Below are positions 4,233-35,095 of a DNA stretch of 64,000 nucleotides, in pieces; the first letter of the stretch is position 1, and every line of letters starts with the position of its first letter. A program made the position numbers and the translations under genes. The stretch covers positions 9,363 through 73,362 of the forward strand of contig CAZKOX010000001.1 in assembly GCA_964554485.1 (NCBI GenBank). Reading direction: 5' to 3'. The notes under the pieces were generated by a model. It was not told the origin of the DNA. It worked only from the letters and a program-made list of their open reading frames with translations, and searched no databases. Origin of the DNA: an uncultured Candidatus Saccharibacteria bacterium (GTDB lineage: Bacteria > Patescibacteriota > Saccharimonadia > Saccharimonadales > JAGQMS01).

Positions 4233-5085
4233 GACTACCTCCTAGTAGATTTTCTGCAGCTTGATCTACGGTCGGCGGAGGCGTTAACGTAGCTGGCGCA
4301 GGAGATCTCTTAGCTGAGAAACGATCAATTCGGGATTTCATATCTTGCATTAGTTTATCTGTTGTTGTGGAAATCGAGTCGCTTACCATCTCCTTAACAT
4401 ATCCATCTTCGATATGGATAAGGTGATCGGCGAGTGGAAGATACTCCATGTTATGCGTAACAAGTATGATTGTTCTTTTAGAATCAGTCTGAGTTGAACG
4501 AAGTAGTTCCATGATTTTGTCGCCACTTTTACTATCAAGGCTGCCCGTCGGCTCGTCGGCGATAATAAACATAGGCCTATTAACAATGGCTCTAGCCATC
4601 GCTACTCTTTGTTGCTCACCCCCGGATAGAAGTATTGGATACTTTTTGGAGTAACTCTGCATTCCAACTTGCTCCAAGGCACGATAGGCTGCTTCTGCGG
4701 CCTTAGCCTTTGTGTACCCAAGAAAATATAGTGGCATCGAAACGTTCTCTATTACGCTTAAACTCTTTACCCAAAAGTTTTGCTGATAAACGATGCCTAT
4801 TTCGTTTGCTCGGAAATGTGCAAGGCGATCTGGCGAAAAGTTATATATGTCGCTCTGATCAAATAATATTTCTCCATTAGTTGGCCTGAGCAGTCCAGTT
4901 AGAATATTAAGCAGAGTTGACTTACCTGATCCTGAGGGACCGTAGATAATATTGAATGTGTTTTCTCTAATTTCGAAACTTACATCTTTCAAGACATCAA
5001 AGGTTTCGTCGCTGACTCTAAAGCTTTGATTGACCCCAGTTGCCTTAATAATTACTCTTTTACTATTATCCATTTTATAGTCCAA
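4219..5085 (-). CDS. ABC transporter ATP-binding protein (MacB/LolD-type) with about 60-aa C-terminal extension
   Basis: Walker A GPSGSGKST, ABC signature LSGGEQQRVAMARA, Walker B IIADEPTGSLD. Start overlaps the giant protein stop by 11 nt. Confidence 0.9.
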   Translation of the reverse strand: MDYKMDNSKRVIIKATGVNQSFRVSDETFDVLKDVSFEIRENTFNIIYGPSGSGKSTLLNILTGLLRPTNGEILFDQSDIYNFSPDRLAHFRANEIGIVYQQNFWVKSLSVIENVSMPLYFLGYTKAKAAEAAYRALEQVGMQSYSKKYPILLSGGEQQRVAMARAIVNRPMFIIADEPTGSLDSKSGDKIMELLRSTQTDSKRTIILVTHNMEYLPLADHLIHIEDGYVKEMVSDSISTTTDKLMQDMKSRIDRFSAKRSPAPATLTPPPTVDQAAENLLGGSHGKI

Positions 5086-8000
5086 AAACTTGCTTTAAGG
5101 TATTGAGAATTATTGTTAACACGCTATCTGATGCTCGTCCGACAATCGCAGATTCTGTTGCACCTAGCCCGGTATTTCCGGCCCTGTCTTTAGAGATTGG
5201 AATTAAACTATAAACACGAGATGTAGGTAGGTCGGAAACAATCACGATGTGTTCAGTGGTTAGTTGAGTGTCCTCGGCGGTTTTGTTGTTGTAATTAGCT
5301 GCATTAGATCCTTCAGCATAGCCAACCTGGCTTGTTGCTGGTTCGTCGGTTTTCCATGAAACAACTACCTGGCCTCTTGCTTCCGCGCCAGTTCCACGAA
5401 TTGCGGATTCAATACTTATCTCTGACACTTTTGGCGGTCTTGTGTCTAGGGCTGTATGAAATTGTTGCCTATCAGAGACTGCAATATTTCCACCTTCATC
5501 TCTAGACTGAGCGACTAAGAAGTACTCGCTGTCGTCTTCAAGGTTACGAATTATTATTTCGTGATCAGTAACCAGATCAAGTACTTGTGCTTCCGTTCCA
5601 CTAGTTCCAACTTTCCCGTATGTAACTAAAGAATTGGCAGGCACGTTTGTTGTCCATGTAACAGTTTGGGTACTGGTTGGTTCGCCGATTATTGGCTGGA
5701 AACGGAGATCAGTTATTCGTGGACGCTGTGGTGTAGTAAACGAGAATACGCTACTTTCGTATGATGAGTTTTCATTATCAAATGTCAAAAGCTTGTAGAA
5801 ATATTTTGTACCATCATCAAGACCTTCAAGCTCGATTGAATAGGTAGATTCAGACAGAGAAGTATTAACTGTTGTGATCCCGCCGTAGTTTTCTCCTTTT
5901 CCGTAAAGTATAGACACCTTGGTTGCCTCTTTAGACGTAAAGGTAATTGCGGCTGTTGTTAAGCCGACGCGGCTAACTGTAATTTCTTTTAAGGACGGGG
6001 CAGGCGATGTGGTGAAGCTAAACTCTTGGCTCGTTCCAGTATTACCATCTTCATCAGTCCACTTTGCTATAGCATAGTAGGTTGTACCAGCACTTAAATT
6101 ATCTAGCTCAATTTCGTGAGCACTTACCTGGGCTGATATTGCTACTTCGGAAGGACTGTATTCACCACTAGCAGTGCCAAGCGCGATTTTTGAATCACTA
6201 GCTCTGTCCGTGCTCCATGAAACAGTAGCGCGTTTTGTGGTGATATTGCTAACTTCTGGGTTAGCGACCAAGGTAGCAGGTGAGGTGAATTTTCCGGTCG
6301 GAACTTCATTTACGACCGAACTATTTGCTCCGCAGTTATTTGTACTGTCGCAAGCTCGAAGGCGGTAGTAGTATCTCTGCTGGGCTAAGCCGGCGTCGAT
6401 ATATGTTGTACTTGAGCTACTGCCTACCTGTGAAAAAGTAGCATTATCGGTTGATCTATAAACCTTATATGAAGAGATTCCTGCCCCAACATCTGCTGGC
6501 TCGTTCCAGGTTATCGCAAGCCGCCAATTGTTAGTTGCCTTAATTGACACATCAACAATGTCGAGGTTTTCCGATATTCCAGGTGAAGGTGTGTTGGCGG
6601 TGAATACGGCAGTTCCGTAGTTGTCGTAGTTGATATTGCTAGACTCGTCTCTAGCGACCACATATATAGTATTTTCACCTGGTTGTGTCGCATAAGGACC
6701 AGCGCCTAGTGCCGTTACTCCAGCTGATGTGAAATTACAATTTATAGATGTTGGTATGGCATTTATCGTGTAACAGTACGTCAGGTTATTTACATCTCCA
6801 ACAAAAGTCGCAGGTGCGTCCCAGTCAAAAGCGAAAGAGTTTGTTACATTACTGGAAGGAGAGGCGATAATATTCAAAGGTTCTGAAGGAGCGCCACTAG
6901 TATTAATCTTAAGAGCAGCGGTTGCATAAGTACTGCTAACATTACCGGCATTATCCCAGGTCCTGAAGTAGACAGTATTTATACCCTCCTCTAAATCTAC
7001 AAAGTCTGGTGTGGGTATTGTGGTGTAACTACCGTCGTTGGCGAGTACGTCGTTTGAGTCACCGGTTCCTGTATGCGAGTCTCCGTACCAATTACCTGCA
7101 CCTATACGGTATTGCAGACCAACTAATCCGGAATTTATATCGCTCGGAGAACTAATTCCAGTGGTAGGCCAAGTTAAAGTAACCTCCTTAGAATTAATAA
7201 ACCCAGAAGGTGCGGTTATGTAAGCCGGGTTGGTTGGTGCGGTGTTATCGAACTTAAATGTGAACTGCTCGGTCGTATTGCTTATGTTTCCGGCGTTGTC
7301 GATGGCTTTGGCGAGTAAATAATAATTAGAATTGGAAGTGCTAAGAGGTGTAGCGATATATCCAGCGGTTGCGGTGTCTATGTTGTTGGTAGATATCATA
7401 AATTGGCAGTGGCCACCGGTTTCTACGGGACTTGTGCCAAGTAAACCTTTTGTAGTAACTGGGTCGGCAGTATCATCTGTCCCAAGATATAAACAATATC
7501 CTTTTATTCCGGATTCGCTATCAACCCCGGCTGTCCAGCTGAAATATGGCGATAGCCCATTAGACCAGGCGCCACTATTCAAGACACTACCTCCGTTAGC
7601 TTTTAGTGCAGCGATACTTGTGGCGTTTGCCGAAGGGTCAATAATATCTGAAGTTGCGGTTGCAGTAACACCATTTAAAGTAACTCTTTGGCTGCCGTCG
7701 CCCTGAAGTATCGCCTCCCATCGTAAACCATTGAACGTAACGGGGAAGCTGCTAATGTTGGTACTAATAGTTGTCTTGTTGTTTGCTTCAGCTATTGATC
7801 CGGATGTTTCCCAACTGTCGCCGTCCCAGTACTTCCATGTTGCGCCGTCATCGGACGAAAGGCGATACAGGATAGTTCCTCCATTTAGGGTTTCGTCAGC
7901 GTCAAAACTATCCCAGTGCCATACACCACTTTGTCGAACAGGTTCATTAAGTGAAATGCTCAAGGCGGCGTTGCTGTATGGTTTAGTGTTAAATGACGAC

Positions 8001-11000
8001 CTATTAATATTAGATATCCGAATCTCATCTAAACTACCTTCGAAGAAACCCTGAGAACGTCCATTATCAAACCCGCCATAAGATTTGCCGATTAATAAAT
8101 CCTGGTCACCGTCAGGAATAGTTAAGCTAGTATTATGAGTGCCAACGCTATTACCATCGATTAATATTTCCATGGTGGTGCCATTGTAGCGTCCTGCTAT
8201 GTGGTGCCAATTAGTATCTTGAGTGCTGGTTGAAGACTGAATAAAACCGTTATTACCGTAAGACCAAATCATGGCGTCGCCATTTGCAGTGTTCCCGGTG
8301 CTTGCGTATAACTTGCCTTGATAAACAACCATCGTTGTAACTTCTTCAATTGTGGTGTCTAGCCAGCTATCATTAAAACCATCGCCACCCACTTGCGCCC
8401 AGGATGTCCCGTTATATCTCCATACTTCACCGTCTCCAGTACTTAAACCGAGGCCGGCGTACAAGTCACCGTTATATGTAGCCATTGAACGAACGCGGTC
8501 GTAGTTATTAGAATCTAGCCAGCCCATATTGTCGCTGCCATTGCTGTCGCCGCCAATTTGCTCCCAGACTGGACTGCCGCTATCACAGTCTGAGCACGCC
8601 CAGACTTCGGCATCGTTGTTTGGAGTACCGGTACCAGATAACCCTAGTCCTACAACTAGCTTGTCGTTCCATACAACCAGAGACTGAATGTCCTCATATT
8701 TTGTGTTTGCCCAGCTGCTGTTTATGGCATCTCCTCCGACTTTTGTCCAAGTCGTACCGCTACCACTATACCGCCAGACCTCTGCTAATCCTGCAGCATT
8801 TGCACCTAGCCCAACATAAAGCGAACCCCTGTATGTTGCCATCGAACTGATGGTTGTATAGCTAGCTGTGCCCCAGTTGCCGGAAGCCGTTCCACCGATT
8901 GCTGCGCCACCCCAGTTAGGGCTCCCGCCGTCACATCCGGTGCATTCCCAGACTTCGCCATCTCCAGCACTTGATCCGAGGCCGGCGTATAATTTTCCAT
9001 TAGCAACACCAAGAGAGTAAACATATTCATAAGTCGTACTCCATGAACTGCCGACGGACGGGCTGCCGTCTGCAACCTTTGTCCAGCCTGGATTATCAAA
9101 TCTCCAAACTTCTGCTTCCCCGGCAGTACTTCCTAAACCGACGTATAATTTATTTTTATAATTTACCATCGACCATACTGCTTCATATGTATCGATAGCC
9201 CAACTGGAATCTATGCCTTGTCCACCAACAACCGACCAGAATCCAGTTGAAGGATCAAGCTCCCAGACAGTCGCATCCCCGGCAGTATTATTTCCAGTGC
9301 CGACATACATTTTGCCTCCGGCTGTAGTCGAAGATTCGATACTATCAATATTGTATTGACCCCAGCTTTTATTGACATATTTTCCACCTATACGATTTCC
9401 ACCCCAAGTTGGTGAACCGCCGTTGCAGTTCGTGCACTGCCAAAAATATGCTTCAGTCGTGTTAGTTAAGCCAGCATATACTGTTGTGTCATCTACAACA
9501 AGTGCTCGAATGCTATTATGCGTTGCATTCCAGCCGCTGTTCACATTGTCACCGCCAACTTTTGTCCAAGAACCGTCATATCGCCATACTTCGTCGTCGC
9601 CGTTTGCTGAGTTTCCTGTACCAACATACAGAGTTGAACCGTTATTGGTAATGCTAAAGATACCTTCTTTATCTACTCCAAAGTTCGCCGAACTTCCTAA
9701 TTTTGTCCAACCACTTCCAGTAGGCGTGCAGTTAATGGTGACATCACAAGACCATATTTCGGCATCGGTATTGGCGGTAATACCTGTACCAACATAAATT
9801 GTATTTCCGTTAGATGCCATCGACAAAACATACTCAGCGACAGACCCCCAACTTTGACCGCCGGCTCCAGAGCCATCACCTCCTCGCTTAGTCCAAGATG
9901 CAGAACCCGGAGTGGTGCAACTGGCGGTGCAATGCCATACTTCTGCATCACCAGCCGTAGAGCCAAGTCCTACCACTGGATTACCACCGACAACGGTCAT
10001 TGCATAAACAACTTCATAACCCGCACCCCAGCCACGAGCGCCACCGGTAGCGTTGTAGCCACCAACACGGCTACTTCCCCAGCTAGGGCTAGTCTCACAG
10101 TTAGTGCACGCCCACACTTCTCCCATATTTGCGCCTGTTCCTAGACCAGCAAATAGTGTCGTTCCGCTTACAGCTAACGAATAGACTCCATTAAAAGCAT
10201 TGCCAGCCCATCCACTATTAAGTCCGTCACCGCCAATTTTAGTCCAGGAACCAGACTTAAATCTCCAAACATCTCCGTCGTTAGTACCTGTTCCCAGACC
10301 GGCATAGAGAACATCTGTGCCGTTAGTCGCTAGGGACAATACTGCCTCGTAGGCATTGGTGCTAATCTCATTATTCCAACTGGAAAAAATACCATCTCCG
10401 GCTACTTGAGCCCACAACCCCAAAGAGGTGTCATATTCCCATATCTCAGCGTCATTAGTGCTGCCACCAAGGGCGGCATATATCTTTGACCCCATCTTTA
10501 CAGATGCGTAGGCGGTTTGTTTTCCATTTTGGTCCCAGCTGCGGTTTACCTTAGCTCCATTATTGGCCAACATGTTATATCCGGCCTGTTGTGTCCAACC
10601 CGTTGATCCTGAATTCTCTAATTCATAAGTAACTTTTCCAGTTTCATTATCGTAGTAGAGCTGGTATTCACCCTTATCTAAGATAGTCTGCCTATATTGT
10701 GAGCTTCCAGCGCTAAAGTTGCTGTCAAATTTTGTCCAACCTTCTAGGGTATTACTTGCTGTGAGCGAAAGCGATGCTGAGTCTGGCGAGATAGCATACT
10801 GAGAAGTGCCGTCTAGGGATAGGCTGTTATTTAAATTACCGGTTGCCCAGATTGGTGTATTGTTTGTGATGGCGTCATTATTGTTTGCAGAAGAATCATC
10901 TGCTGTCGTTCCGCCAAGTTCGTCAAGGTGGAATAGGGCCATGGTGTTAGCGTCGCTTGTGTAGTTCTGGGCTTTCATGCGCACGCTACTACCGCTTGTC

Positions 11001-11362
11001 TCAAGGTTGTCGTCGAAGCTGTAATCCGATGGGGTTAAGAAGTCCCAAGTGTTGTTTAGGTCAGCAGCGAATGCGACCCTGTAAGAAGTAAATAAGACAC
11101 CAAAGACTGCAAGAACATAAATAGCAAGAACAGAAAAATGTAACTTTCCATGATGTTGCCAGGTGTGCCAATTTTTGTACCATTCGACCCTTTCCATAAA
11201 GAATAGGTGAGGTCTTTTGGCGGTATGGTGGTGAATAAAAAGAACAATTTTTTTCGTGTAAAGGTGAGAAAATTTAGCAATATTTAAAAAAAGTCGACCG
11301 ACAAAGCCAACAAAGTAGCGTAGTGCACGACCAAGCATAATGATAATGTTTCTAACATTCAT
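5075..11362 (-). CDS. giant (about 2040-2095 aa) membrane-anchored surface protein: about 14 tandem ~55-aa repeats (probable beta-propeller), LamG/ConA-like lectin domain, several FN3-like domains
   Basis: Single ORF. The first ~55 codons of the ORF look non-protein-like; the more likely start is the MERVEWYKNW... ATG near 11197, followed by a TM/signal segment (LAIYVLAVFGVLFTSYRVAFA). Repeats of form WTKxGGDGxNSxW...LYxGLGxxxGDxEVW, a LamG signature (GSLDEIRISN), and C-terminal FN3-like segments (YYYRLRACDSTNNCG). Confidence 0.8.
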   Translation of the reverse strand: MNVRNIIIMLGRALRYFVGFVGRLFLNIAKFSHLYTKKIVLFIHHHTAKRPHLFFMERVEWYKNWHTWQHHGKLHFSVLAIYVLAVFGVLFTSYRVAFAADLNNTWDFLTPSDYSFDDNLETSGSSVRMKAQNYTSDANTMALFHLDELGGTTADDSSANNNDAITNNTPIWATGNLNNSLSLDGTSQYAISPDSASLSLTASNTLEGWTKFDSNFSAGSSQYRQTILDKGEYQLYYDNETGKVTYELENSGSTGWTQQAGYNMLANNGAKVNRSWDQNGKQTAYASVKMGSKIYAALGGSTNDAEIWEYDTSLGLWAQVAGDGIFSSWNNEISTNAYEAVLSLATNGTDVLYAGLGTGTNDGDVWRFKSGSWTKIGGDGLNSGWAGNAFNGVYSLAVSGTTLFAGLGTGANMGEVWACTNCETSPSWGSSRVGGYNATGGARGWGAGYEVVYAMTVVGGNPVVGLGSTAGDAEVWHCTASCTTPGSASWTKRGGDGSGAGGQSWGSVAEYVLSMASNGNTIYVGTGITANTDAEIWSCDVTINCTPTGSGWTKLGSSANFGVDKEGIFSITNNGSTLYVGTGNSANGDDEVWRYDGSWTKVGGDNVNSGWNATHNSIRALVVDDTTVYAGLTNTTEAYFWQCTNCNGGSPTWGGNRIGGKYVNKSWGQYNIDSIESSTTAGGKMYVGTGNNTAGDATVWELDPSTGFWSVVGGQGIDSSWAIDTYEAVWSMVNYKNKLYVGLGSTAGEAEVWRFDNPGWTKVADGSPSVGSSWSTTYEYVYSLGVANGKLYAGLGSSAGDGEVWECTGCDGGSPNWGGAAIGGTASGNWGTASYTTISSMATYRGSLYVGLGANAAGLAEVWRYSGSGTTWTKVGGDAINSSWANTKYEDIQSLVVWNDKLVVGLGLSGTGTPNNDAEVWACSDCDSGSPVWEQIGGDSNGSDNMGWLDSNNYDRVRSMATYNGDLYAGLGLSTGDGEVWRYNGTSWAQVGGDGFNDSWLDTTIEEVTTMVVYQGKLYASTGNTANGDAMIWSYGNNGFIQSSTSTQDTNWHHIAGRYNGTTMEILIDGNSVGTHNTSLTIPDGDQDLLIGKSYGGFDNGRSQGFFEGSLDEIRISNINRSSFNTKPYSNAALSISLNEPVRQSGVWHWDSFDADETLNGGTILYRLSSDDGATWKYWDGDSWETSGSIAEANNKTTISTNISSFPVTFNGLRWEAILQGDGSQRVTLNGVTATATSDIIDPSANATSIAALKANGGSVLNSGAWSNGLSPYFSWTAGVDSESGIKGYCLYLGTDDTADPVTTKGLLGTSPVETGGHCQFMISTNNIDTATAGYIATPLSTSNSNYYLLAKAIDNAGNISNTTEQFTFKFDNTAPTNPAYITAPSGFINSKEVTLTWPTTGISSPSDINSGLVGLQYRIGAGNWYGDSHTGTGDSNDVLANDGSYTTIPTPDFVDLEEGINTVYFRTWDNAGNVSSTYATAALKINTSGAPSEPLNIIASPSSNVTNSFAFDWDAPATFVGDVNNLTYCYTINAIPTSINCNFTSAGVTALGAGPYATQPGENTIYVVARDESSNINYDNYGTAVFTANTPSPGISENLDIVDVSIKATNNWRLAITWNEPADVGAGISSYKVYRSTDNATFSQVGSSSSTTYIDAGLAQQRYYYRLRACDSTNNCGANSSVVNEVPTGKFTSPATLVANPEVSNITTKRATVSWSTDRASDSKIALGTASGEYSPSEVAISAQVSAHEIELDNLSAGTTYYAIAKWTDEDGNTGTSQEFSFTTSPAPSLKEITVSRVGLTTAAITFTSKEATKVSILYGKGENYGGITTVNTSLSESTYSIELEGLDDGTKYFYKLLTFDNENSSYESSVFSFTTPQRPRITDLRFQPIIGEPTSTQTVTWTTNVPANSLVTYGKVGTSGTEAQVLDLVTDHEIIIRNLEDDSEYFLVAQSRDEGGNIAVSDRQQFHTALDTRPPKVSEISIESAIRGTGAEARGQVVVSWKTDEPATSQVGYAEGSNAANYNNKTAEDTQLTTEHIVIVSDLPTSRVYSLIPISKDRAGNTGLGATESAIVGRASDSVLTIILNTLKQVFGL

Positions 11363-33576: not shown

Positions 33577-33800
33577 ATATATTCATTGACAGAAGTATAC
33601 GAAAGTTGTAGATTAATGTTCAGCCTCGTTGAGCAATTAGCTCCGAGGAGTTATTTAACAGGTGTTGGCAAACAAATTGTTTCTTCTTCCCACAGGAGTT
33701 TTTATAGAAATCTTGCCGATACAGACGGCCGCTACTATGTCTTATATTTTAAGATCTAGCAGTGGCCGGCTGTCTCGTATGCAGCTTTCCTAAAAGAAAT

Positions 33801-33874
33801 AGCCCTGTGGTGAAGCTCGGAGTTCACATCTCCCGCACAAGGAGAAGGTCGCGGGTTCAAATCCCGCCAGGGCA
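33801..33874 (+). tRNA. tRNA-like gene, anticodon loop cgCACaa (Val-CAC by position), non-canonical G33 and A1:A72 mismatch
   Basis: Hand-folded cloverleaf: acceptor gccctg/cagggc, D-arm gtga-agctcggagt-tcac (G18G19 present), anticodon stem tctcc/ggaga, T-arm gcggg-ttcaaat-cccgc. Loop lacks U33. Confidence 0.5.
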
Positions 33875-34026
33875 GCGATGATTACAAGTCGAATATCGTC
33901 CGGTTTAATCCGGGGTAGTCATTAGCGAGCAGAGTAATCTGCTTGCGAGGGTTGGCAGACGCGCTAGCGCAGAAAGCCAATTGGGGTGGCGGTCGACCGG
34001 CAACGGTCGACTGCCACTTCACCAAG

Positions 34027-34100
34027 CGGGGATTAGCTCAATCGGTAGAGCACCCACCGTAATACGTGGCAGGTTGTGGATTCGAGTTCCGCATCCCCGA
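34027..34100 (+). tRNA. tRNA gene, identity unresolved (anticodon arm folds as 4-bp stem with 8-nt loop cgtaatac)
   Basis: Acceptor cggggat/atccccg, U8, D-arm gctc-aatcggta-gagc, T-arm gtgga-ttcgagt-tccgc, discriminator A. The anticodon region cccaccgtaatacgtgg cannot form a canonical 5-bp/7-nt arm. Confidence 0.55.
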
Positions 34101-34224
34101 CTGCTTGGAGTGTGAGCGTAAGTCTAGCTTTCCTTGAAGTGAAGGTCTTCGTGTACGAAAGTAAATGGTGGACGGTACTTTTTCACCTAACGAGACCGAC
34201 GACGACACACTCCAGGCAACCCCC

Positions 34225-34297
34225 GCCCTTGTAACTCAGTTGGCAGAGTAGCCGCCTTCAAAGCGGTATGTCATGGGTTCGAATCCCATCAGGGGCA
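34225..34297 (+). tRNA. tRNA with anticodon UCA (UGA-decoding; opal suppressor-like or recoding tRNA), canonical 73-nt class I cloverleaf
   Basis: Acceptor gcccttg/caggggc (one G-U), D-arm actc-agttggca-gagt, anticodon stem gccgc/gcggt with loop c-u-UCA-a-a, variable loop 5 nt, T-arm atggg-ttcgaat-cccat, discriminator A73. Confidence 0.7.
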
Positions 34298-34343
34298 CGT
34301 TTCCGACCACGAAGCGCACGGTATGTGTTCGTGGCGAAACAGG

Positions 34344-34388
34344 GGTGGGGCGACGAGCGAAAGCTTGTTGCCCCACCTATCTTCTTTT
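34344..34388 (+). terminator. Rho-independent terminator after tRNA cluster
   Basis: ggtggggc...gccccacc 8-bp GC stem enclosing an inner stem-loop (gagcgaaagctt), followed by tatcttctttt. Confidence 0.7.
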
Positions 34389-34616
34389 AGTCTGAACATG
34401 TTGGCGTGAGTGCTTGTGTGTTTAGATTAATAGTCTTGCCTGAAGCAGCCGGGGGGCCGGCTTCAGGCGAGCTGCCGAAGAGCGTGTGGTTCACCCCCTC
34501 GAACCGCGCACCGGCAGTGCCGAGGATTAGGAGGTGCGTACCCGTGAACGGCGCACTGACTTTTCCTCGGCAAAATCGATTGGAAGAATCCGAGACTCAC
34601 CTTGAAAGGGGTGAAG

Positions 34617-34754
34617 ATGACAACTCCGGGCTACAAGCCTTGCCCGAATCCCAAGTGCCAGGGCGGAAAGCATTACGCCAATGGCGCGCAAGTTTTTCTC
34701 GGGCTAGGGACGACTTGCACTACCTGCAATGGCAAGGGCGAAGTGAAGAAGTAA
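34617..34754 (+). CDS. small ORF (45 aa) encoding a zinc-ribbon / DnaJ-type CxxCxGxG finger peptide inside a GC-rich island
   Basis: MTTPGYKPCPNPKCQGGKHYANGAQVFLGLGTTCTTCNGKGEVKK. Strong SD aaaggggtgaag 5-7 nt upstream. Two Cys pairs (CPNPKC, CTTCNGKG). Local GC is clearly above the window average. Confidence 0.4.
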   Translation: MTTPGYKPCPNPKCQGGKHYANGAQVFLGLGTTCTTCNGKGEVKK

Positions 34755-35095
34755 CTTGATCGTCCGCCGGAGCTTATGCGAAGGAGGATGATCGAGGGGA
34801 TACTAAAAAGGTGGCCAACACCTGTATCTCCAATTAGCGTTAAACAAAATGTTTGACGGTAGCTGGAGATAAATATCATACAAAACAAAAGAGGCCGGAT
34901 TTCCAGCCCCTTTATGGGAAGGATTTTGGAGTACTCCACCCCTAGTCTCTTCCACACAATTAGGTTAGCATGGGTCTACTATTAATACGCAAGCATTTTA
35001 ATGATAAATTCGATGTTCGCTTCACAAAATTAACATCTTGAGCTATACTGTTGGGAACTGTTATAAATATTACTAATTGTTAGAGGAGTTTTTTA

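Follow-up and report, generated by a model that had tools for sequence, protein, structure and literature searches.

The locus considered here raises the question of what three consecutive tRNA-shaped genes (t1, t2 and t3) are doing in a 64,000-nucleotide (nt) stretch of DNA from an uncultured Candidatus Saccharibacteria bacterium, the whole of which is referred to below as the window. Gene finders label the three genes 'Val', 'undetermined' and 'SeC/suppressor', and a naive reading would see recoding, or phage cargo, in a genome of the Candidate Phyla Radiation (CPR). The comparative evidence points instead to a conserved, clade-specific non-coding operon, in which a ribosomal RNA (rRNA)-style leader and a leader-trailer helix surround cargo that is not rRNA. 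At least one of the tRNAs, derived from tRNA-Pro, appears to have been turned into a structural, non-decoding RNA. All functional statements are based on sequence analysis of 12 lineages, comprising the window and 11 others.

The only tRNA genes that ARAGORN detects in the 64-kb window are the three of this cluster, which it calls Val(cac) at 33801-33876, '???' at 34027-34101 and 'SeC'(tca) at 34225-34298. The three elements are as follows.

33801..33875, plus strand: t1, a tRNA with a Glu-type body, anticodon CAC, G33 and A1:A72 (ARAGORN Val(cac); Rfam RF00005, 45.4 bits, gathering threshold)
34027..34100, plus strand: t2, a tRNA-like RNA from tRNA-Pro with C1:G72 and A73 (ARAGORN 'tRNA-???'; Rfam RF00005, 50.1 bits, obtained only with relaxed filters)
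34225..34297, plus strand: t3, a canonical-looking tRNA with anticodon UCA (Rfam tRNA, 70.2 bits, gathering threshold)

The Cluster Occupies a Conserved Chromosomal Slot

Syntenic loci of the 11 further lineages were gathered via homologues of ribosomal protein L25, whose identity to the window protein declines from 92% to approximately 55%. In the window, the cluster is preceded by pheS, pheT and genes for a DUF2207 membrane protein and a histidine phosphatase, and is followed by genes for ribosomal protein L25/Ctc, an ABC transporter, an FKBP and a thioredoxin reductase (TrxR). The slot (pheST ... L25-ABC-FKBP-TrxR) is found in the 12 lineages with the same promoter and leader and with related tRNA-shaped modules. 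The pheT gene, or the pheS-pheT pair, is also visible upstream in 8 of the 11 further loci, and a non-coding stretch of 0.65–1.7 kb precedes L25 in all 11; this stretch is absent in two more distant lineages (L25 identity 49% and 42%). The window L25 is 81–83% identical to that of two Saccharimonadales/Patescibacteria metagenome-assembled genomes, and no integrase or phage gene lies among the window genes flanking the cluster. The syntenic conservation across lineages argues that the locus is native and clade-specific rather than recent horizontal cargo. It shows the three tRNA-shaped genes as part of a putative stable-RNA operon that is native to, and vertically inherited in, this Saccharimonadales (CPR) bacterium.

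The non-coding region is identical between contigs of different samples (L003 to L006; L008 to L010; L014 with L015), and four independent assemblies give the same sequence for the orthologous array of the nearest relative, L003. This identity over the whole region speaks against ongoing hypermutation, and the idea that the anticodon loops are being actively hypermutated, in the style of a diversity-generating retroelement, was rejected for that reason. Scanning metagenome DNA with the leader pattern gave no match, and a degenerate version of the pattern returned three copies of an unrelated sequence (L021-L023) without tRNAs. At gathering and E-value thresholds, tRNA is the only Rfam family matched in the region, with no match to Y-RNA. 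No description of the operon or of the t2 family was found in Rfam 15 or in the literature searched, and literature on CPR/Saccharibacteria tRNA-like RNAs and on D-loop insertions held nothing relevant.

A Leader and a Leader-Trailer Helix Resembling Those of an rRNA Operon

The cluster is framed by the following elements.

33586..33614, plus strand: sigma-70-type promoter TTGACA-17-TAGATT, agreeing with the consensus at 10 of 12 positions; both hexamers are kept in related loci
33624..33648, plus strand: boxB-like leader hairpin (CCUCG..UUGAG..CGAGG), a predicted fold with compensatory stem changes across lineages
33649..33660, plus strand: boxA-like element AGUUAUUUAACA, agreeing by inspection at 9 of 13 positions with the boxA of the Escherichia coli rRNA operons (rrn), UGCUCUUUAACAA
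33658..33669, plus strand: 5' strand of the leader-trailer helix, ACAGGUGUUGGC, G/U-rich and at the boxC position, forming a duplex with 34814-34825
34814..34825, plus strand: 3' strand of the leader-trailer helix, GCCAACACCUGU, inside a conserved 'X element' (approximately 34755-34875)

Comparison of these elements shows an operon that is apparently laid out like the front of an rRNA operon: behind a strong promoter come a hairpin, a boxA-like element and a G/U-rich strand predicted to pair with a distal trailer. In the published pre-16S layout (Warner, Bundschuh and Fredrick 2023, PMC10250234), boxB, boxA and boxC follow one another in this order, and boxC is part of the 5' strand of the leader-trailer helix. 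The same order follows the promoter here, as seen by inspection and with the likeness to E. coli boxA given above. The stem of the boxB-like hairpin, aligned and compared by eye, occurs as CCUCG/CGAGG, CUUCG/CGAAG, UUUUG/CAAAA and CUUUG/CAAAG. The boxA-like element, with the core UUAUUUAAC, is 100% conserved in L001, L002 and L007, and the remaining lineages have a nearly identical version.

The two strands of the window helix are exactly complementary over 12 bp at a distance of 1.1 kb, with the trailer strand located past a small open reading frame (ORF). The predicted free energy (dG) of the duplex is -24.0, compared with -15.4 ± 1.8 for shuffled leaders. A corresponding duplex of 11–16 bp is present in all 12 lineages (dG -18.6 to -29.7), with the strands 412–1342 nt apart; L012, for instance, pairs CCAGGUGUUAAUAA with UUAUUAACACCUGG, and L016 pairs CAGGUAGUAGUG with CAUUACUACCUG. 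Among the 11 distinct sequences, 8 of 14 pairs display double changes and 90.9% of the alignment cells are paired, a covariation score that was reached by none of 500 shuffles and from which register shifts also fall far short. The helix encloses the tRNA modules and a 45-residue zinc-ribbon ORF. In the window, the cargo starts with a long hairpin, after which come t1, spacer 1, t2, insert S and t3; then follow two hairpins, of which the second is terminator-like, a GC-rich 5' untranslated region (UTR) and the zinc-ribbon ORF.

No rRNA was found inside the helix, either by Rfam or by comparison of the window cargo with 16S rRNA. A degenerate 16S relic was rejected for the window, as an ungapped comparison to E. 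coli 16S gave nothing scoring at least 11. The sole matches in this comparison are a 13-mer resembling the 790 loop in L013 and a related 21-mer in L008, both barely above shuffles. They lie in D-loop insertions of t2 orthologues (L013 415-427; L008 4028-4048), which carry GGAUUAGAUACCC(CGG), matching the 16S 790 loop (E. coli 785-805); no further 16S-like pieces were found.

t2 Descends from tRNA-Pro and Has a Free Anticodon Hairpin

RNAfold predicts a cloverleaf for t2 in which an anticodon stem of 4 bp carries an 8-nt loop, CGUAAUAC, as noted in the initial annotation and reproduced by cmscan; position 27:43 is a C-C mismatch. The acceptor opens with C1:G72, and A73 follows the stem. These are classical hallmarks of bacterial tRNA-Pro and identity elements for ProRS. 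Orthologues of t2 are recognised in 8 lineages by C1:G72, A73 and C74, the D stem GUAGCUCA/GGUAGAGC and the T arm GGUGGUUCGAAUCCACC, and C1:G72 and A73 are present in every one of them. Across this family, 98.4% of the cells in 16 acceptor, D and T pairs are paired, and in 8 of these pairs both partners have changed in a compensatory way.

A degenerate pattern of the T arm and 3' acceptor retrieved five contigs from IMG/VR, all with canonical tRNA-Pro genes (UGG, CGG or GGG). The t2 cores of L007 and L008 are 75–78% identical to two of the IMG/VR tRNA-Pro genes, and the window copy 58–62%; a window-specific t2 pattern had no match in IMG/VR. Since it bears the tRNA-Pro hallmarks and its T arm and acceptor match only tRNA-Pro, t2 is shown by these comparisons to be a probable descendant of tRNA-Pro, with an acceptor stem, D stem and T arm that appear to be under purifying selection.

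The anticodon hairpin follows a different course, as it differs among all 8 orthologues in loop sequence or in thermodynamic fold, with loops of 3–8 nt.

Window: CGUAAUAC (8-nt loop, 4 bp)
L003: UAACAG
L001: CUGAAAA
L007: CUUGGA
L008: 7 bp, 3-nt loop
L011: 6 bp, 5-nt loop
L013: 7 bp, 3-nt loop
L014: 7 bp, 5-nt loop

The anticodon stems nevertheless stay paired. An NGG anticodon in a 7-nt loop with G37 is not found in the family, and UGG survives only in L007, in a 6-nt loop. The D loops carry insertions of 0, 0, 15, 61, 93, 80, 80 and 34 nt across the 8 orthologues, and we know of no precedent for D-loop insertions of 15–93 nt among bacterial tRNA genes. Two additional lineages, L016 and L017, retain only an acceptor/T-type minihelix of 13–14 bp in which C1:G72 is kept; its 3' flank reads A-C-C-A in L016 (A73 with an encoded CCA) and C-C-A-A in L017, with C as the discriminator. 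In L012, t2 is a remnant whose 5' acceptor strand no longer pairs. This remnant, and t2 of L014, lie approximately 30 nt upstream of the start codon of the small ORF.

The comparison thus shows an anticodon hairpin that seems to be unconstrained and a D loop that seems to tolerate large insertions. The variable anticodon hairpins, together with the D-loop insertions and the minihelix-only lineages, argue that t2 is not a decoder, and we infer that it no longer reads codons. The 8-nt loop had been likened to those of frameshift-suppressor tRNAs. This analogy does not hold, because the loops of the orthologues range from 3 to 8 nt with unrelated sequences; the loop of the window is best read as one state of an unconstrained hairpin, not as a conserved quadruplet anticodon. 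The C-C at 27:43, the disappearance of the parent anticodon and the variable loop length also set t2 apart from the suppressor type. The initial annotation had offered tRNA-derived pseudogenes or regulatory decoys as an alternative. The derivation from a tRNA and the absence of decoding are upheld for t2; decay into a pseudogene is not, since compensatory changes preserve the acceptor, D and T stems, and stem-breaking substitutions throughout are not seen (98.4% of stem cells paired).

The orthologues with D-loop insertions are located at L001 5071-5158, L007 4028-4159, L008 3965-4130, L011 4279-4429, L013 354-507 and L014 4534-4639. A tRNA-Phe(GAA)-like gene at L011 4109-4255 also carries a D-loop insertion of the 15–93-nt class.

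Selection Acts on the Fold

L003, whose L25 is 92% identical, was used as the reference for divergence. Neutral divergence from the window has reached saturation in L003: the four-fold degenerate sites of six flanking genes have an identity of 0.376 (830 sites). The identities of the parts of the operon to L003 are as follows.

Leader: 0.83-0.88
Spacer 1: 0.74-0.85
Insert S: 0.83
t2, acceptor/D part: 0.88
t2, T/acceptor part: 0.77
t3, body: 0.92-0.96
t2, anticodon arm: 0.44
t3, anticodon arm: 0.53
t1, overall: 0.56
Stretch from the terminator-like hairpin to the ORF: 0.35

Because spacers and tRNA bodies are still similar while neutral sites are saturated, both are likely to be under purifying selection. 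The identities show putatively strong purifying selection on the spacers and the tRNA shape, and t2 and t3 anticodon arms that diverge at an approximately neutral rate. They show, at this level of comparison, modules that would be selected for their fold, and t2 and t3 that would not be selected for their anticodon.

t1 Has a Glu-Type Body with a Shifted Anticodon

RNAfold gives t1 a cloverleaf, and t1 and t2 alike have the general build of an elongator tRNA (7-bp acceptor, D arm with G18G19, T arm with a UUCRANY loop). Its 7-nt anticodon loop, C-G-C-A-C-A-A by cmscan and RNAfold, has G at position 33 in place of U33 and therefore lacks the canonical form of a decoder loop. The pair 1:72 is A:A, neither Watson-Crick nor G-U, and is flagged as non-canonical in the cmscan alignment. 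Both anomalies had been noted before, and the alignment and fold bear them out.

The sequence of t1 is 81% identical to the t1 of L011, a canonical tRNA-Glu(CUC) with G73 (58.1 bits). Pairs 6:67, 28:42 and 29:41 are changed in a compensatory manner (by eye from the alignment), and only pair 1:72 is lost. The derived states relative to L011 are U35 to A, which converts CUC to CAC, U33 to G, and G1:U72 to A1:A72. By contrast, the identity of t1 to the canonical tRNA-Val(CAC) that L003 has in this place (A73, 67.8 bits) is only 58%. The alignment thus shows t1 as a presumptive tRNA-Glu-type body whose anticodon has shifted from CUC to CAC, with stems kept through compensatory changes. The anticodon is not conserved, being CAC in the window and CUC in L011 on the same body type. 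The t1 gene may still serve as a weak, redundant decoder of GUG, which accounts for 195 of the 1386 Val codons in the window ORFs. A T-arm pattern of t1 proved generic in viral contigs, where it matched mostly tRNA-Met, and the body could not be typed in this way.

t3 and Exchange of Modules between Lineages

The t3 body is 92–96% identical to its orthologue in L003 (3922-3993), as opposed to 53% for the anticodon arm; the loop is CUUCAAA (anticodon UCA) in the window and CCAUCAA (C33, anticodon AUC) in L003. A UCA anticodon would read UGA, yet TGA is the stop codon of 6 of the 46 window ORFs, which are long and dense under the standard code and give no sign of programmed frameshifts. Region-wide blastn against phages found only weak, generic tRNA similarity (78–82%) between t3 and phage tRNA genes, and a t3 pattern in viral contigs was uninformative for typing the body.

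The t1 of L003 is 81% identical to t3 of the window, and the two are paralogues. As the L003 t1 body differs from that of window t1 and resembles t3, the modules have, by this comparison, apparently been duplicated and swapped between lineages. Non-canonical modules occur elsewhere as well, including loops with A33 in L002 (CAUCCAG) and L017 (UAGCCAU) and a 9-nt loop in L001.

Structured Spacers and Insert S

The tRNA-shaped modules are embedded in the following folded elements.

33718..33782, plus strand: long imperfect hairpin ahead of t1 (z = -5.6), with analogous long hairpins in other lineages
33876..34026, plus strand: spacer 1, four stable hairpin domains (dG -73.9, z = -7.4), 74–85% identical to L003
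34101..34224, plus strand: insert S, a structured domain with a 13-bp closing helix (34102-34114 with 34206-34218) and internal hairpins (z = -2.9), 83% identical to L003
34298..34392, plus strand: two trailer hairpins, the second of which (34343-34378) is terminator-like, with a 16-bp stem followed by the U-rich ATCTTCTTTT (z = -7.9)

The whole 772-nt transcript folds far beyond shuffled sequences (z = -8.7), and a stable helix lies within 1–10 nt of each tRNA. The segment around the first hairpin (33713-33790) is 88% identical to L003. An unusually stable hairpin with a GCAA loop had been described in spacer 1 at 33986-34017; it is indeed present and extends further, to 18 bp (33982-34021; dG -34.4 kcal/mol, z = -8.6 relative to shuffles). 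All pairs of this hairpin hold between the window and L003: one pair has changed in a compensatory manner, and three further changes are compatible with G-U pairing. The terminator-like hairpin is kept in L003 without the U tract.

Insert S begins two bases past A73 of t2 and ends approximately five bases before t3. The long-range helix that closes it had been given as 8 bp; the helix exists with 13 bp, and its 'cacactcc' strand falls at 34206-34213, one base away from the position first assigned to it. A consensus fold of four orthologues (window, L003, L001 and L007) contains 34 pairs, 8 of them compensatory. Insert S matches no Rfam family even at E<=10. Its ends resemble helix I of 5S rRNA; this identity was rejected, as a 136-nt query found no Rfam match at E<=10 and the branching topology differs.

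The Small ORF and Downstream Elements

The distal part of the cargo consists of two elements.

34393..34616, plus strand: GC-rich structured 5' UTR of the small ORF, with a hairpin at 34439-34467 and a Shine-Dalgarno sequence at 34605-34616
34617..34754, plus strand: small ORF of 45 amino acids, a zinc ribbon (CxxC / CxxCxGxG) with a DnaJ_CXXCXGXG match below threshold and a strong Shine-Dalgarno sequence

The GC fraction is 0.526 over 34001-35000 as compared with approximately 0.43 in the rest of the window. The GC-rich island that had been remarked upon behind the tRNAs corresponds to the GC-rich hairpins of this 5' UTR, which have counterparts, together with a strong Shine-Dalgarno sequence, at the matching place in other lineages. 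A T-box reading of the 5' UTR was rejected, as Rfam finds no T-box match. A candidate internal promoter, TTGGCG-16-TAGATT at 34401-34428, scores below the scan threshold; it shares the extended -10 context of the main promoter and is located ahead of this GC-rich 5' UTR.

Homologous small ORFs are present in L001, L002, L012, L013 and L014, and the L001 protein has a weak Anti-TRAP match, well below threshold. In L008 (approximately 4331-4507) and L011 (approximately 4560-4739), the zinc-ribbon ORF is replaced by an unrelated ORF of approximately 58 amino acids (VAGNQD..AKLH), which retains the strong Shine-Dalgarno sequence and the place inside the leader-trailer helix.

The X element (34755-34875) follows the small ORF. 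A helix at 34796-34803/34824-34831 would loop the trailer strand, and it overlaps a second helix, 34826-34832/34864-34870, so that the two are mutually exclusive. The first helix seemingly covaries (GAUAC/GUAUC and GAUGC/GCAUC), and the element looks like a switch.

Between the operon and the L25 promoter lies a conserved small-RNA-like element of approximately 70 nt (GGAAGAGACGAGGGGUGGAGUAC..CCUUCCC, then a terminator hairpin), located at 34887-34955 on the minus strand of the window and on the plus strand at L007 approximately 4832-4900, L008 approximately 4668-4740 and L013 approximately 929-1001. It is inverted in the window, L001 and L002 with respect to other lineages, has no Rfam match, and in L017 contains an insertion of approximately 150 nt relative to L018. 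Elsewhere in the window, an ORF of 2095 amino acids occupies 5075-11362 on the minus strand.

Proposed Function and Alternatives

With moderate confidence, we favour a native, rrn-like stable-RNA operon in which t2 does not decode and the tRNA shapes act as modules for processing by RNase P and RNase Z or as structural modules. Judging from its resemblance to rRNA leaders, Nus-factor antitermination may allow RNA polymerase to traverse this folded and mostly untranslated transcript, the terminator-like hairpin included. The leader-trailer helix would clamp the cargo and either organise or process the precursor. To go by their shape, the tRNA modules may be kept for the sake of the acceptor, T arm and elbow; it is these parts, and not the anticodon, that RNase P, RNase Z and the CCA-adding enzyme recognise. 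The modules would then serve as punctuation, at which the precursor is cut into structured RNAs such as spacer 1 (approximately 150 nt) and insert S (approximately 124 nt), and the same cleavage could also set the 5' end of the small-ORF mRNA. What is conserved in t2 is the acceptor/T minihelix together with the elbow and A73-C74, and each tRNA has stable domains adjoining it.

Several observations weigh against this proposal. The likeness to boxA extends to only 9 of 13 positions, the gap between boxA and boxC is approximately 0 nt compared with 18–19 nt in Enterobacteriaceae, and the window helix has 12 bp, whereas E. coli 16S maturation requires more than 17 bp (PMC10250234). Conservation of the spacers and insert S is confined to the closer lineages, so that the spacers being the product cannot be a universal rationale. 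Fully canonical modules are found in other lineages (Val-CAC in L003, Glu-CUC in L011 and Pro-GGG in L008), and the locus therefore probably also hosts real tRNAs. The occurrence of CAC at position 1 in both the window and L003, on different bodies, suggests selection for a Val-CAC decoder. Finally, a pure processing handle does not obviously explain the invariant C1:G72 and A73; the invariance of these ProRS identity elements hints at a role of t2 that is specific to the acceptor end.

A bolder version of the proposal is possible, although we regard it as doubtful. The locus could represent an undescribed operon class in which rRNA-operon machinery (boxA antitermination and a leader-trailer clamp) serves to produce structured spacer RNAs alongside tRNA-derived RNAs that do not decode. 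At the centre of this class would stand a scaffold of tRNA-Pro origin whose identity is retained only in the acceptor and T arm and whose D loop and anticodon arm are freely open to insertions. It would perhaps form a new functional class of tRNA-like RNA, for example a decoy directed at the ribosome or a synthetase, and not mere punctuation.

Among the rival explanations, the decay of redundant tRNA genes survives best, and we still consider it unlikely. Dispensable isoacceptors (C34 types or duplicates) would be under relaxed selection, and the odd loops would reflect early pseudogenisation. The near-neutral divergence of the anticodon arms, the gain, loss and duplication of modules between lineages, the redundant kind of the anticodons seen (CAC, CUC, GGG and AAG) and the seemingly broken t2 acceptor of L012 agree with such decay. 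Oral Saccharibacteria carry a tRNA-Val(UAC) within the rRNA operon (PMC7651992), and Val-CAC would be dispensable if this lineage has the same gene. What decay does not account for is the state of t2, whose acceptor, D and T stems are 77–96% identical despite saturated neutral sites and hold 8 compensatory pairs at 98.4% pairing over 8 lineages. The anticodon stems also remain paired, the tRNAs sit within a strongly conserved frame of promoter, leader and trailer, and small CPR genomes purge dead DNA.

It is rather improbable that the genes are functional decoders, with t1 as a remoulded tRNA-Val(CAC) for GUG and t2 as a quadruplet or frameshift-suppressor type comparable to the tRNA-Pro-derived sufA/sufB. 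A35 and C36 are the main determinants for ValRS, and the CAC of t1 carries both. Its 7-nt loop and good stems fit a decoder, as does the presence of CAC at position 1 in the window and L003 despite the different bodies, and tRNA-Pro, the source of t2, is the classic origin of +1 suppressors. These points are countered in t1 by G33, the A1:A72 mismatch and a G73 in place of the A73 typical of Val. In t2 they are countered by a loop, CGUAAUAC, without NGG and by orthologues that have unrelated 3–8-nt loops, D-loop insertions of up to 93 nt or only the minihelix, and the window ORFs show no sign of programmed frameshifts.

A role of the acceptor end is of similarly low probability. Through C1:G72 and A73, t2 would act as a decoy or sponge, or as a non-ribosomal aminoacyl carrier, with ProRS, a tRNA-targeting toxin or an aminoacyl-tRNA-dependent transferase as candidate partners. 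Both elements are invariant in the 8 family members, C1:G72 is kept in the two minihelix-only lineages (A73 and an encoded CCA only in L016), and the anticodon is irrelevant to the t2 family. The small protein, moreover, weakly matches Anti-TRAP, a tRNA-linked regulator family, well below threshold; this match reflects only the shared CxxCxGxG motif. Bacterial ProRS additionally requires G35 and G36, which most t2 members lack, and the neighbourhood contains no gene for a toxin, a transferase or an extra synthetase.

The horizontally acquired phage or mobile-element tRNA array proposed in the initial annotation, which would supply unusual decoders, is very improbable: the GC-rich region, the atypical tRNAs, the weak similarity (78–82%) of t3 to phage tRNA genes and the existence of phage arrays whose tRNA-Pro genes have a t2-like T arm and acceptor are outweighed by a slot, promoter, leader and leader-trailer helix kept in 12 lineages, by housekeeping flanks without an integrase, by the absence of the window-specific t2 pattern from IMG/VR, by phage matches that are generic canonical tRNA-Pro genes of unrelated arrays, and by the high GC expected of a stably folded RNA within an AT-rich genome.

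If the rrn-like stable-RNA operon is the correct reading, the locus would provide a natural case of tRNA exaptation in bacteria, and the combination of rrn antitermination with a leader-trailer design would be used more widely than known. It would also call for caution against inferring changes of the genetic code from single odd tRNA genes in metagenome-assembled genomes.

Comparison with Known Systems

The closest parallel to the frame of the operon is the pre-16S leader (PMC10250234). By inspection, the elements behind the promoter come in the same order in both: first a hairpin, next a U-rich ..UUUAACA element, and last a G/U-rich strand, which makes up the 5' half of a long-range helix supported by covariation. 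The operon differs from it in its cargo, which consists of tRNA-shaped modules, hairpin domains and a small ORF instead of rRNA. Its helix is also shorter, with 11–16 bp as opposed to 25–40 bp, and the boxA-like and boxC-like parts abut.

Punctuation by tRNAs is familiar from mitochondrial polycistrons, from MALAT1/mascRNA and from the bacterial thrU-tufB and tyrT-tpr tRNA-mRNA operons. As in these systems, tRNA-shaped elements are part of a longer transcript, the parts read by RNase P and RNase Z are conserved, RNAs or an mRNA lie between and after them, and the anticodon region is unconstrained. The Rfam mascRNA model scores only 17–19 bits in this comparison, consistent with chance. In contrast to the known examples, the modules come from specific bacterial tRNAs (Pro, Glu and Val types), carry D-loop insertions of up to 93 nt and are framed by an rrn-like leader and trailer, and the processing proposed here is predicted from sequence.

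The suppressors sufA/sufB are tRNA-Pro-derived +1 frameshift suppressors with 8-nt loops. C1:G72, A73, the D arm GUAGCUCA..GGUAGAGC and the T arm GGUGGUUCGAAUCCACC of tRNA-Pro match t2, the window loop is also 8 nt long, and L007 has UGG in its 6-nt loop. The loop of the window t2 differs in having neither NGG nor G37, and neither its length nor its sequence is conserved among orthologues, which marks t2 as a probable descendant of tRNA-Pro and not as a working tRNA-Pro or suppressor.

Non-decoding tRNA-like RNAs of bacteria include the 'tRNA-Other' of Bacillus cereus and the tRNA-like domain of Y RNAs (YrlA). Like t2, they are chromosomal, combine a tRNA fold with a non-functional or absent anticodon and are conserved within a clade. 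Unlike them, t2 has neither rsr/rtcB nor lysK in its context, has an acceptor of the tRNA-Pro type and is embedded in an operon of several modules.

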